Assembly (NCBI GenBank): GCA_965279565.1
Contig: OZ257249.1
Span: 1,040,496 to 1,104,495, forward strand
Direction of reading: 5' to 3'
From: Tagaea sp.
GTDB taxonomy: Bacteria > Pseudomonadota > Alphaproteobacteria > CACIAM-22H2
Length of the DNA stretch: 64,000 bases
The position numbers and the translations under genes were made by a program. Shown here piece by piece: positions 55,692-58,635 of the stretch (the first letter of the stretch is position 1; every line of letters begins with the position of its first letter). The notes under the pieces were generated by a model that saw nothing but the letters and a program-made list of their open reading frames with translations, did not search any database and had not been told where the DNA came from.

Positions 55692-56618
55692 ATGAGCATC
55701 GGGCCGTTTCGAGCCGTCGGACAGATCGACAATGTACCGCGCGGCGCCTCGCGCGAGGTGGTCGACGCGATCCGCGACGCCAGCCAGCGCAGCGGCGTCG
55801 ACTTCAAGTACATGCTCGCCAAGGCCCAGACCGAATCGAGCTTCGATCCGCGCGCCAAGGCGCGCACCTCGTCGGCCTCGGGCCTCTACCAGTTCATCGA
55901 GAGCACGTGGCTCAACACCGTGCGCCAGCATGGTGCGAAACACGGGCTTGGCGACGCCGCCGCCCAGATCGAGGACGATTTCGCCGGCAATCCGCGCGTG
56001 CGCGATCCGGCCACGCGCCGCTCGATCCTCGACATGCGCTTCGATCCGAAGACCGCCAGTGCCATGGCCGCGGAGTTCGCCAAGTCGAACCACGCGCAGC
56101 TCGAGAACGCGCTGGGCTCCGGCGTCAACTCGACCGATCTCTATCTCGCGCACTTCCTGGGGGCGGGTGGGGCCACGCGTTTCCTCGCGAGCCACCGCAA
56201 CGATCCGCAGCGCGTCGCGGCCGCACAGTTCCCCGAAGCCGCCGCCGCCAATCGCGGCGTGTTCTACGATCCGCAGTCGGGCCGTGCCCGCACGCTCGGG
56301 CAGGTCTACGATTTCTTCGCGAAGAAGATGACCGGCGAGATCGCCACGGTCGACGCGACGACGGCCGAAGAGCTGCCGGCAGCACCCGCGATGGGCCCGC
56401 GCAAGACGAAGCCCGAGCTGCCGGCGCAGCTCCAGGCGCTCGCCGCACAGTTCGGTCTCAAGGGCGCTTCGCTGAAGCCCGAAACCATCATGGCCATGGC
56501 GCTTCTGGCCGAGCCGCTCGTCGCCTCGGTGCGCGGCGGCAACTCGCTGTTCGATCAAGGCGGCAAAGCAAGCCGCGTGGGTGCGGGCAAGGTGTTCAAC
56601 CCGGATATCGGAATCTAG
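55692..56618 (+). CDS. Lytic transglycosylase (SLT-domain) family protein.
   Basis: LAKAQTESSFDPRAKARTSSASGLYQFIESTW is the SLT catalytic-Glu / GLMQ-like motif. The C-terminal half is low complexity. Confidence 0.7.
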   Translation: MSIGPFRAVGQIDNVPRGASREVVDAIRDASQRSGVDFKYMLAKAQTESSFDPRAKARTSSASGLYQFIESTWLNTVRQHGAKHGLGDAAAQIEDDFAGNPRVRDPATRRSILDMRFDPKTASAMAAEFAKSNHAQLENALGSGVNSTDLYLAHFLGAGGATRFLASHRNDPQRVAAAQFPEAAAANRGVFYDPQSGRARTLGQVYDFFAKKMTGEIATVDATTAEELPAAPAMGPRKTKPELPAQLQALAAQFGLKGASLKPETIMAMALLAEPLVASVRGGNSLFDQGGKASRVGAGKVFNPDIGI

Positions 56619-56668
56619 GCCGCTATCCGAGCCGACGTCTGTCCGCCCGAAAAGTGGGGGAGACGATC

Positions 56669-56908
56669 ATGAGCGTATCCTGTGCCGTAGGCGCCTGGGC
56701 GATGATGGCCCTTGCGATGGACAAGGCGGACGAAATGAAGTTCGCCTGCTACCCGGACCGCAAGACCTGCGTGGAAATGATGGAAGGCCTCGCGCGGCGC
56801 ACCAAGCGCGGCTTCGACAACGGCGTCGTCGGCTGCCGCTTCGAGCGCGACGCGGTCGTGGGATCGGCGAAACTGCCGGAGACGGCGGGGATCACGCAAC
56901 AGCGTTGA
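56669..56908 (+). CDS. Small hypothetical Cys-containing protein (79 aa).
   Basis: GGGGGAG lies 8 nt upstream of the ATG, and the ORF ends the long same-frame read-through ORF. Four Cys residues (CAVGAW...CYPDRKTCVEMMEG...GCRF). Confidence 0.35.
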   Translation: MSVSCAVGAWAMMALAMDKADEMKFACYPDRKTCVEMMEGLARRTKRGFDNGVVGCRFERDAVVGSAKLPETAGITQQR

Positions 56909-56949
56909 TCGCCGGTTGACTTGCGCTACTTCAACTAACTAGCGGCGCG

Positions 56950-57648
56950 CTATTCAATCTTTGCGCTTTTTTGAAGATTGTGGCGCACACACAAGAGCTG
57001 AACATTCTCTGCCGTTAGAGACGTGCCGCCGCGCGAGTAGGGCACAACGTGATCAAAGTGGAGTTCATCGCTTGCGCCGCACTTCGTGCAGCGTCCTTGG
57101 TCTCGCTTCCAAACTTCTAGCTTTACCGAAGCCGGGATTATGCGTTGTCGCGATATCGCAAGTTTCCTGGTTTCAACTGCACCCAAGCGCTGATCTTCGG
57201 CTTCAACGGCAACTAACTTAAACTTAAATACAGAGCGCTTATCGACTTGTTCTTGCCAAACATCGACTAGCCGGAAATAGCCGTTATCGCTCCAGATTCC
57301 GCCGCGGATTTTTTCATAGACGCGAACTAAATCCGCGTCCTTCTCACTTGCTTTGTATTTCCGCGCGGCAGCGGCGAATTTGCCATTCTCTGTCGGCTTG
57401 CCTGACGGAAGGAACTCGGGCTGATCGACGAGCTTTGGATGGGGCGCACCCTTTCGCCGCGCCATGTCATGGCCTTCGTAAACAAGGACTAGCCCATCAT
57501 CTTCGATTCGATCGGCATAGGGGGCGTCAGGTCTCAGTGACATTAGAATCACGGAGTGGCGACCATTGAGCCGAAAATTCATTCCGCGCTGAAGGCTAAC
57601 GCCTTCAATTTGGCACATCTCAATGTAGCTAATTACTTGGCCGCGCAA
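56950..57648 (-). CDS. HNH endonuclease-domain protein with an uncharacterised N-terminal domain, encoded in a low-GC islet. The probable TTG start at 57648 is preceded by GAGGA; an alternative ATG lies at 57618.
   Basis: C-terminal HNH motif CTKCGASDELHFDHVVPYSRGGTSLTAENVQLLCVRHNLQK (CxxC...HxDH...N...HN). Local GC is about 50% against about 70% in the flanks, with rare codons (TTA, CTA, ATA). Confidence 0.7.
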   Translation of the reverse strand: MRGQVISYIEMCQIEGVSLQRGMNFRLNGRHSVILMSLRPDAPYADRIEDDGLVLVYEGHDMARRKGAPHPKLVDQPEFLPSGKPTENGKFAAAARKYKASEKDADLVRVYEKIRGGIWSDNGYFRLVDVWQEQVDKRSVFKFKLVAVEAEDQRLGAVETRKLAISRQRIIPASVKLEVWKRDQGRCTKCGASDELHFDHVVPYSRGGTSLTAENVQLLCVRHNLQKSAKIE

Positions 57649-57741
57649 ATTCGATCCTCAAGAATGCAGAAGCATCATGAGGAACTGAATACATCTGTAG
57701 GTAAAACTTCAATTGGAATTTAGTGAGTCGACCTAGTTAAC

Positions 57742-58635
57742 TCACTTTATTGCTGCCAGCTCCGCCTCCAGCGCGATCACGTGCGCGATCAGCTCGTCGG
57801 CGACGCGCAGCTGGTAGTCGTCGAAGGCGCCGGCGGGGGCGCGCAGGTCGGGCGTGGGATAGATGCCCTGGCGCCAGAGCAGGCGCTTGAAGAACAGGAT
57901 CGATGTCTCGAGGCTCTGGTTCGAGAAGGCGAGGACCGGCAGCAGCCGGCGGAACAGCGCGATGGCGCCGTCGCGGTCGCCGGCCGCGTAAAGCTTCAGG
58001 ATCGCGACATAGACGATGTTGAACGCCGTCGGCATGAACGCGTCGACGTCGCGGTCGAGTGCTTCGATCAGCTGCATGACCGCCCAGCCGCCCGACACGT
58101 GCGCCCGGCCGCCGGTCGCCTGCTTCAGCGCCGTGTATTTGTGGCCGGCATTCGCCGTCTCGATCTTCAGATAGCGGAACGCGTCGACCGCCTCGAACGC
58201 GGCGAGGATCGCCGGCAGCGGTGCGCCCGATCCGCTCGCGTCCCAGTCCTGGACCATGACCGGCTTTCCGGCCGCGCGCGCCACGCCGGCGATATCGGCG
58301 ACGTATTGCGCCTGCGATTCGTACGGCATGTTCACCAGCACGATATCGCAGCCCAGTTCGGCGAGCCGGCCGGCATGGCGGCAGCGTTCGTCCTGCGTGG
58401 GTGCAGATGCGCCGCCGACCACCGACGCGCGGCCGCCGGCCGTGGCCACGACCGTGCGCACGATCGCGTCGCGTTCGTCGGGCTGCAGCTTCTGCACCTC
58501 GGCCGCGAGGGCCGGCACGAGGAAACCGACCACGCCCGCGTCGAGGGCGACCTGAACGTGGCGTTCGAGGCCCGCGAGCGCCACGCTGCCGTCGGCAGCG
58601 AAAGGCGTGTTGAGCGACGTGACGATTCCCTTCAC
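57742..58635 (-). CDS. Dihydrodipicolinate synthase/N-acetylneuraminate-lyase family (DapA-like) class I aldolase.
   Basis: MKGIVTSLNTPFAADGSVALAGLERHV is the TPF motif of the DapA/NAL family. A candidate Schiff-base lysine sits in FRYLKIE. Confidence 0.7.
   Translation of the reverse strand: MKGIVTSLNTPFAADGSVALAGLERHVQVALDAGVVGFLVPALAAEVQKLQPDERDAIVRTVVATAGGRASVVGGASAPTQDERCRHAGRLAELGCDIVLVNMPYESQAQYVADIAGVARAAGKPVMVQDWDASGSGAPLPAILAAFEAVDAFRYLKIETANAGHKYTALKQATGGRAHVSGGWAVMQLIEALDRDVDAFMPTAFNIVYVAILKLYAAGDRDGAIALFRRLLPVLAFSNQSLETSILFFKRLLWRQGIYPTPDLRAPAGAFDDYQLRVADELIAHVIALEAELAAIK

Follow-up and report, generated by a model that had tools for sequence, protein, structure and literature searches.

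Restriction endonucleases of the SRA-HNH class combine a base-flipping SRA domain with a dimeric HNH domain which cuts at a variable distance; they cleave DNA carrying 5-methylcytosine (5mC) or 5-hydroxymethylcytosine (5hmC), restrict phage T4gt, are toxic in Dcm+ hosts and are usually not encoded beside methyltransferases (PMC4333417, PMC6212794, PMC6765204). In TagI of Thermocrispum agreste (6GHS) the flipped base is held in a pocket of Tyr55, Asp58 and Tyr67 (PMC6212794). The enzymes of the ScoA3IV (Sco5333) group, among them TbiR51I, MsiJI, VcaCI, Vvu009I and Vsi48I, are 5mC/5hmC-dependent, toxic to Dcm+ hosts and located mostly away from methyltransferases (PMC4333417, PMC6765204). A 64,000-nucleotide stretch of Tagaea sp. 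contig OZ257249.1 (positions 1,040,496 to 1,104,495 of the forward strand; referred to here as the window) contains a low-GC islet with a single gene, the product of which is quite probably an SRA-HNH modification-dependent (type IV) restriction endonuclease acting on modified cytosine. An earlier note on this DNA had compared its architecture with that of modification-dependent (type IV) restriction enzymes, a comparison which is supported by the SRA fold of the N-terminal domain and by TagI being the top structural match.

The full-length protein was modeled as a monomer with AlphaFold (AF2) from a 30-sequence alignment, giving a predicted local distance difference test score (pLDDT) of 77; the only disordered part was the linker of residues 151-167. 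A search for a modified-base-reading fold, which the earlier note had proposed as a check on the N-terminal domain, was run with Foldseek on this model. The best match in the PDB was TagI, over the full length of the protein and with an E value of 1.9e-9, and the SRA domain of SUVH5 was matched at E ~1e-6 with a template modeling score (TM) of 0.62-0.65 by target length. Almost all of the 38 further matches at E<=1e-3 were to SRA domains or SRA-type restriction enzymes, including SUVH5/6, KRYPTONITE, UHRF1/2, ScoMcrA, AspBHI and LpnPI. Based on the model, the N-terminal domain has the SRA fold. What had been described as a domain of roughly 170 aa and of unrecognised family is instead a divergent SRA domain of about 150 aa followed by the disordered linker.

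At the level of sequence, Pfam SAD_SRA (PF02182) was matched over residues 30-147 (model positions 41-144, E 4e-4), and matches below threshold were obtained for 14 of the 30 homologues (best E 3.7e-6), with remote members reaching 25-27 bits. Homology of the domain to SAD_SRA is likely, while formally below the Pfam threshold. Among the invariant residues are Y44, D46, G52, Y57-E58-G59-H60-D61 and the block G117-I-W...N122-G-x-F...D129. In a weak though plausible hhalign alignment of the profile with UHRF1 (E 0.056), Y44 was paired with Y466, Y57 with Y478 and G52 with G473; the numbering of UHRF1 was checked against the published residues.

Several observations weigh against this assignment. 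The SAD_SRA score of 20.5 bits lies under the gathering score of 30.7, a weak sequence link to SRA domains, and the identity to TagI is 19%. When PDB sequences were searched with profiles, either of the whole family or of the N-terminal domain alone, the SRA pocket region was missed; the only matches were to HNH domains and, marginally, to SUVH9 at the C-terminal YDG-like block (…NGYFRLVDVW…). In the low-confidence alignment with UHRF1, the invariant D46 was paired with D468, one residue before D469. Published biochemistry for the 232-aa clade was not found. Finally, the SRA-containing enzyme HHPV4I is dependent on N6-methyladenine (PMC10101028), so that cytosine specificity of the islet enzyme is not guaranteed.

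It could thus be proposed that the SRA-like domain reads some other mark (N6-methyladenine, a hypermodified pyrimidine or a damaged base), or that the protein is a modification-independent toxin or nickase. The distance from characterised SRA domains, the pocket Asp offset by one in the sole alignment obtained and the precedent of HHPV4I are in keeping with such a proposal, as is a database protein (P0201) in which the same N-terminal domain is joined to a D12 adenine methyltransferase; P0201, however, stops three residues past the domain, possibly because the gene call is truncated or mis-merged. Judged by the alignment, the islet protein appears to keep the two aromatic residues which wall the pocket and an invariant carboxylate beside them. 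In TagI and UHRF1 such a carboxylate selects cytosine over thymine and purines (PMC6212794), and all nine SRA-HNH enzymes characterised so far (9/9) act on 5mC or 5hmC. A specificity for another mark, or for none, appears unlikely.

The C-terminal domain was described in the earlier note as a canonical HNH nuclease, and this was borne out. Pfam HNH was matched over residues 187-229 with 32.8 bits against a gathering score of 21.4 (E 7.8e-8), and many phage HNH proteins in PHROGs matched the domain. Searches with PADLOC and NCBIfam gave HNH-level matches only (type II restriction endonuclease models, IscB, Cas9 HNH). Residues C187, C190, D199, H200, N215, C220, H223 and N224 were invariant in the 30 homologues. 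Zinc would be bound by C187xxC190 and C220xxH223, and all the residues expected of an active HNH enzyme are kept. The domain is of the H-N-N variant, N224 being the last catalytic-metal ligand, with CxxH as the second zinc motif.

The order of parts in TagI is the same, namely an N-terminal SRA domain, a flexible linker and a C-terminal HNH domain. TagI likewise has a zinc-stabilised HNH domain with CxxC and a gene standing alone without a methyltransferase, and its pocket of two tyrosines and a carboxylate (PMC6212794) has a putative counterpart in the islet protein from sequence alignment. It differs in length (285 residues in the crystallised chain as compared with 232 aa), in a second zinc motif of CxxD where the islet protein has CxxH, in a last catalytic-metal ligand of His254 instead of Asn, and in Ala228 instead of Asp (D199) before the catalytic His. 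A CxxH zinc motif was noted in CflDI by the authors of the TagI study (PMC6212794). The low sequence identity, and the failure of Pfam to detect the SRA domain of the islet protein at threshold, also set the two apart.

The ScoA3IV group shares the SRA-HNH architecture (PMC4333417, PMC6765204); sco5333 likewise lies within a genomic island, and both the group and the islet family have members in Vibrio. As published, the group comprised about 160 homologues, most of which came from Actinobacteria and GC-rich Proteobacteria, whereas the islet clade is far larger (>7,600 clusters at 90% identity, about 1,000 at 50%). The accessions of the tested Vibrio enzymes VcaCI, Vvu009I and Vsi48I (WP_045378060 for VcaCI, along with WP_060534244 and WP_052237964) were not among the clusters inspected. 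Activity in vivo can be low in this group, as seen with VcaCI. ScoMcrA (SBD-SRA-HNH, 5ZMM) matched structurally in both its SRA and HNH domains (Foldseek ranks 5-17), but it carries an extra sulfur-binding domain which reads phosphorothioate and has no equivalent in the islet protein. With the eukaryotic SRA domains of UHRF1 and SUVH5 the fold is shared, the YDG-like blocks align (…NGYFRLVDVW… with …YDGIYKVVKYW…) and the two pocket tyrosines also align; these proteins differ in that the effector is a chromatin enzyme rather than a nuclease, in the 'NKR finger' region, which is unlike, and in the Asp offset noted above.

The islet carries one gene and no methyltransferase, and a tblastn search of the window with a C5 cytosine methyltransferase gave no homologue. 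At other loci, the neighbours of SRA-HNH genes are unrelated genes. Based on the fold, the domain order, the catalytic residues and this genomic solitude, the protein was filed as a probable, compact and sequence-divergent member of the known SRA-HNH class, and not as a new kind of system. Its modification specificity, cleavage and role in defence are inferred by analogy with TagI and ScoA3IV. Scanning duplex DNA, the SRA domain would flip out modified cytosine, either 5mC or 5hmC or both, and accommodate it in a pocket walled by the invariant tyrosines Y44 and Y57, with the invariant acidic residue D46 nearby. The HNH domain, tethered by the disordered linker, would probably dimerise and cut or nick at a variable distance. 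Host DNA would be spared because it would lack that modification; no methyltransferase accompanies the gene. Phage or other incoming DNA with modified cytosine would be destroyed. The enzyme may also block the establishment of 5mC-methylating restriction-modification (RM) systems. The coordinates of the gene, its domains and the surrounding features are given in Table 1.

Table 1. Features of the islet and its borders (coordinates are those of the window)
Feature	Coordinates	Strand	Basis and remarks
SRA-HNH endonuclease coding sequence (putative)	56950..57648	-	Open reading frame (ORF) list; 232 aa; TTG start, TAG stop
SRA domain (predicted modified-cytosine reader), aa 1-150	57199..57648	-	Foldseek, Pfam SAD_SRA, hhalign, alignment
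Flexible linker, aa 151-167	57148..57198	-	pLDDT <50; variable alignment columns
HNH (beta-beta-alpha-Me) nuclease domain, aa 168-232	56953..57147	-	Pfam HNH, PHROGs, alignment
5' region travelling with the gene	57649..57721	-	Ribosome-binding site GAGGA ~57655-57659; candidate promoter
Islet	56888..57751	.	No homology to empty-site relatives; replaces ~21 bp of L001
DHDPS/class I aldolase family host gene	57742..58635	-	Pfam DHDPS E 1e-14
Conserved 79-aa ORF, convergent on the DHDPS-like gene	56669..56908	+	tblastn; no Pfam family
Left border motif TTCAACTAACTAG	56930..56942	.	Sequence; placed at ~56921-56934 in the earlier note
Right border motif CTAGTTAACTCAC	57733..57745	.	Sequence; placed at ~57731-57743 in the earlier note
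Hairpin AGTGAGT...ACTCACT	57722..57746	-	dG -9.8 kcal/mol, z -3.2; DHDPS-proximal end

The compositional islet is real. The 832-bp segment 56910-57741 has a GC content of 0.51, compared with 0.68 for the window and 0.68-0.70 for the flanks; it is the lowest-GC stretch and the sole place in 64 kb where 700-bp windows fall below 0.58. The ORF itself has a GC content of 0.52 and a GC content at third codon positions (GC3) of 0.54, while the GC3 of the adjacent DHDPS-family gene is 0.89. The low-GC, single-gene islet reported in the earlier note is hence confirmed by composition (0.51-0.52 against 0.68-0.70) and by the empty sites found in relatives. The same note had named findings which would speak against its proposal, and the opposite was obtained in each case: the N-terminal domain has the fold of a modified-base reader, empty sites exist, and the GC content of the gene is foreign.

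The start of the gene was assigned to the TTG at 57648. A GAGGA-N6-TTG arrangement is present there, and the N-terminus MRGxxISY is kept in dozens of 232-aa homologues, while the database protein (P0001) has 222 aa and begins at Met11, leaving out window positions 57619-57648. Since residues 1-10 are conserved and preceded by this arrangement, the TTG is the real start and P0001 is ten codons short. Upstream, a candidate promoter is formed by TTGAAG (57712-57707) and TATTCA (57691-57686), 15 nt apart; the pair TTGAAn-N15-TATTsA and the GAGGA are retained at the occupied sites of two relatives (L030 and L043) despite differing surrounding bases. A scan of 56500-58000 for the sigma-70 consensus gave nothing relevant at this position, so that its function as a promoter is putative. 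The ratio of non-synonymous to synonymous substitution rates (dN/dS) against the 88%-identical copy in relative L034 was 0.036, which indicates that the coding sequence is under strong purifying selection.

The insertion site was defined by comparison of the flanks with those of relatives, as the earlier note had suggested, and clean empty alleles were obtained in five of them (L001-L004 and L006), the DHDPS-like proteins of which are 81-93% identical. The flanking genes mark the host as related to Tagaea (Rhodospirillaceae). Homology in blastn to L001-L004 ends at 56887 and restarts at 57752. Where the site is empty, the convergent genes lie directly next to each other. A single palindromic CTAG (…CGCTAGGC…) is shared by both stop codons in L001 and L003 (4885-4905), while 3-8 bp lie between the genes in L002, L004 and L006; CTAG is present at the DHDPS-like stop in all five (5/5). 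Based on these limits of homology, both genes end within the foreign segment, which provides the terminal six codons of the 79-aa ORF and, for the DHDPS-like gene, the terminal two codons plus the stop (…ELAA-IK*); in relatives the DHDPS-like protein ends in …ELAA* (the nearest), …ELAARD* or …ELGARR*. The neighbor had been called DapA-like. It scored 43 bits against TIGR00674 with a cut-off of 206, and similarly weak matches were obtained to KdgD, NanA and HpaI, by which it is classed, from its sequence, as a DHDPS-family aldolase and not a true DapA. The 79-aa ORF was detected by tblastn with 71-91% identity in L001-L006 and 70% in L030-L032, and in L034 and L043, where the contig stops, by its C-terminal tail.

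The SRA-HNH gene was found at the same site and in the same orientation in three further contig sets. The copy in L034 is 95% identical at the amino acid level, that in L043 76%, and those in L030-L033 73% (69.5% at the nucleotide level), the last with a GC content of 0.50 and a GC3 of 0.53 beside a neighbor with 0.89. In L043 the 3' flank encodes the tail of the 79-aa ORF as …AKLEPHR*, like L004. The three diverged alleles (window, L030 and L043) have mutual identities of 72-76%. About 70 bp of 5' sequence accompanies the gene, while the 3' junction is not conserved.

A different insert occupies exactly the same junction in L005 (Tagaea sp. OZ245864.1, 4910-7510). This segment of 2.6 kb and 55% GC encodes a C5 cytosine methyltransferase (PF00145, E 2e-48), a GIY-YIG protein, which is likely the type II restriction nuclease, and Vsr. 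A module which writes 5mC should not be able to coexist with an SRA-HNH enzyme dependent on 5mC. As an RM module uses the site in L005, the hotspot is independent of the SRA-HNH protein and takes up both 5mC-writing cargo and cargo predicted to attack 5mC, and the junction is a recurrent hotspot for restriction-type cargo in the Tagaea clade.

When a tree was built from the flanking genes, each occupied locus came out as sister to an empty one: the window to L001/L003, L005 to L004 and L030 to L006. Between the window and L030, synonymous sites of the SRA-HNH genes are saturated (proportion of synonymous differences, pS, 0.78), while the adjacent DHDPS-like gene has a dS of 0.64; the alleles are consequently older than the divergence of the flanks. 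These data do not fit simple vertical descent. They are compatible with repeated acquisition, or else with an old presence/absence polymorphism spread among relatives by recombination of the flanks. The gene was acquired horizontally, along with a 5' region of about 70 bp, into the junction of two convergent host genes, and homologous recombination of the flanks would be the most economical route of transfer among relatives. It is possible, and is suggested here tentatively, that the junction is a long-lived hotspot where a 5mC-writing RM module and a presumed 5mC-reading SRA-HNH enzyme alternate by mutual exclusion, the polymorphism being older than the hosts and the compact clade maybe having its own specificity. 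One junction which is empty, or holds an SRA-HNH gene, or holds a 5mC RM module offers a natural experiment; it is useful for the study of single-gene defence islets which move without a recombinase of their own, and it bears on the mutual exclusion of methylation-writing and methylation-reading systems.

The repeated occupancy of one site might be attributed to homing, with the HNH protein acting as a free-standing endonuclease which cuts empty sites and so copies its own gene into them. The HNH fold is common among homing nucleases, with many phage HNH matches in PHROGs, and the same gene is present in the same orientation and site in at least three diverged lineages with empty sisters. However, the N-terminal domain is a predicted base-flipping SRA reader and not a sequence-specific DNA-binding module, the gene resides at unrelated sites and in integron arrays in other genera, and the unrelated RM module of L005 uses the same junction. 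No full-length relative was detected in 50,697 phage records, 72,556 plasmids and IMG/VR. Alleles which are 72-76% identical with saturated synonymous sites are, moreover, unlike the product of recent homing. Homing is considered very unlikely.

Integron cassettes in sedentary chromosomal integrons provide another comparison. In Vibrio parahaemolyticus (L038:4860-5830 and L039:4850-5830) a family gene of 67% amino acid identity and a GC content of 0.39 is a cassette bounded by attC repeats of about 125 bp on both sides (…ACATAACAAAC…GGGCGTTA), in arrays which also hold acetyltransferase, ParE, glyoxalase and other cassettes, whereas the window copy is without attC or array. Integron arrays are reported to be rich in small restriction genes of types II and IV, and restriction genes of these two types to be frequent in chromosomal integrons (bioRxiv 10.1101/2024.07.02.601686). 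The islet could accordingly be a cassette dropped at a secondary (non-attI) site, its border motifs being decayed core sites, and the GTTAACT of the right border is near the GTTRRRY core. It nevertheless misfits GTTRRRY at position 6. A cassette should have an attC site downstream of its ORF, an imperfect inverted repeat of about 55-140 bp having R''/R' cores, but none was found in the window, and the 41 bp between the HNH stop and the neighbor's stop show no more folding than shuffles (z +0.6). Copies from the Tagaea clade have a conserved 5' region of about 70 bp with a promoter-like motif, which the Vibrio cassette is without, only 24 bp lying between attC and ATG, and the same site in L005 is occupied by a three-gene RM module. 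An origin as a dropped cassette is accordingly considered very unlikely. In the Vibrio arrays, tiny called 'genes' of 36-46 aa fall within the attC repeats.

The earlier note had held that CTAG-containing inverted repeats bracket the islet. Both border motifs exist, at coordinates slightly different from those first given, and they share TAACTAG/CTAGTTA, an identity of 7 bp (complement at 57733-57739). Shuffles preserving composition, however, gave an inverted repeat of 7 bp or more between the border segments in 22% of cases (P = 0.22). That the heptamer is found nowhere else in the window is due only to the scarcity of AT-rich words in a genome of 68% GC. The motif was absent at the other occupied copies of the site (L030, L034 and L043) and from the gene flanks at family loci in other genera, the single match, in Vibrio L038, being intragenic. 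The repeats are thus neither significant nor conserved, and they fit neither a target-site duplication nor terminal inverted repeats. Avoidance of CTAG was confirmed for the window (17 observed, about 67 expected under a Markov model). Five of these 17 lie in the 832-bp islet, three of the five within the ORF, and islet composition predicts 3.2; the border CTAGs thus reflect foreign composition and are no signal of mobility, and they do not stand out as had been proposed.

CTAG was considered as a target-site duplication and rejected, because native sequence adjoins neither copy: the right one is followed by 14-15 foreign bases, and the left one has about 30 non-homologous bases ahead of it. 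Significant terminal inverted repeats of a transposon or IS-like element were absent (the 7 bp above, P = 0.22), and no transposase ORF was present in the islet. The bases 56939-56950, CTAGCGGCGCGC, resemble CTAGCGCCGCGCGC of L006 and were considered as a remnant of the native DHDPS 3' end; this is a speculation based on only 12 GC-rich bases, and the corresponding insert of 56951-57750, with TAT at both ends, was unsupported by L030, L034 and L043.

The hairpin at the DHDPS-proximal end, proposed earlier as a terminator of the DapA-like gene, is real by its folding energy. It includes the DHDPS-like stop codon (TGA, the reverse complement of 57742-57744) and the right-hand CTAG, is without a U-tract and was not called in a terminator scan of 56500-58000. 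With the stop codon inside the hairpin and no U-tract, the role as a terminator is unproven and is given here as possible.

Occupancy of the site seemed linked to the tail of the 79-aa ORF, with …ETAG[I/L]… at occupied and …ETAKL… at empty loci. This pattern held in three occupied and five empty loci and was broken by L043, which is occupied and reads …AKLEPHR*. The tails at occupied loci are …ETAGITQQR* (window 56888-56908), …ETAGIFLPR* (L005:7511-7531) and …ETAGLPPPR* (L030:4763-4783), and those at empty loci are …ETAKLDDRR* and similar.

The family to which the gene belongs is wide. More than 7,600 relatives at E<=1e-3 were found in a collection clustered at 90%. Most have 232 aa and identities of 63-76%, and they come from Vibrio, Stutzerimonas, Altererythrobacter and many metagenomes. 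A profile search with the N-terminal domain gave 1,033 clusters at 50% identity; among the 150 matches listed, this exhaustive search of representative sequences gave close family members and no bridge to the canonical SRA-HNH enzymes. All the relatives are labelled "HNH endonuclease" or "hypothetical". In Stutzerimonas the gene is likewise a single-gene islet among metabolic genes, with a GC content of 0.505 against 0.66. Reading of modified cytosine and cutting of DNA can hence be proposed as the likely function of a very large, highly conserved family of Alpha- and Gammaproteobacteria which the Pfam SRA model misses at threshold and for which databases say only "HNH endonuclease". The 232-aa clade, which moves as an integron cassette in Vibrio, could be a branch of SRA-HNH enzymes with its own specificity. 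Its members are also candidate tools for the mapping of 5mC and 5hmC.

In Altererythrobacter segetis (L037:187-4461) the family gene adjoins a SIR2_2 gene, a 530-aa unannotated gene and an SRAP (HMCES/YedK-like) gene, and this locus may be a small defence island. The SRA-like N-terminal domain also occurs in other architectures (P0155, P0279, P0201 and P0277), namely HIT-SRA-HNH, MazF/PemK-SRA-HNH, SRA with HNH_2, and the D12 adenine methyltransferase with the domain. On a metagenomic contig (L044:1763-2764), a plain SRA-HNH gene is directly followed by its HIT-fused paralogue.

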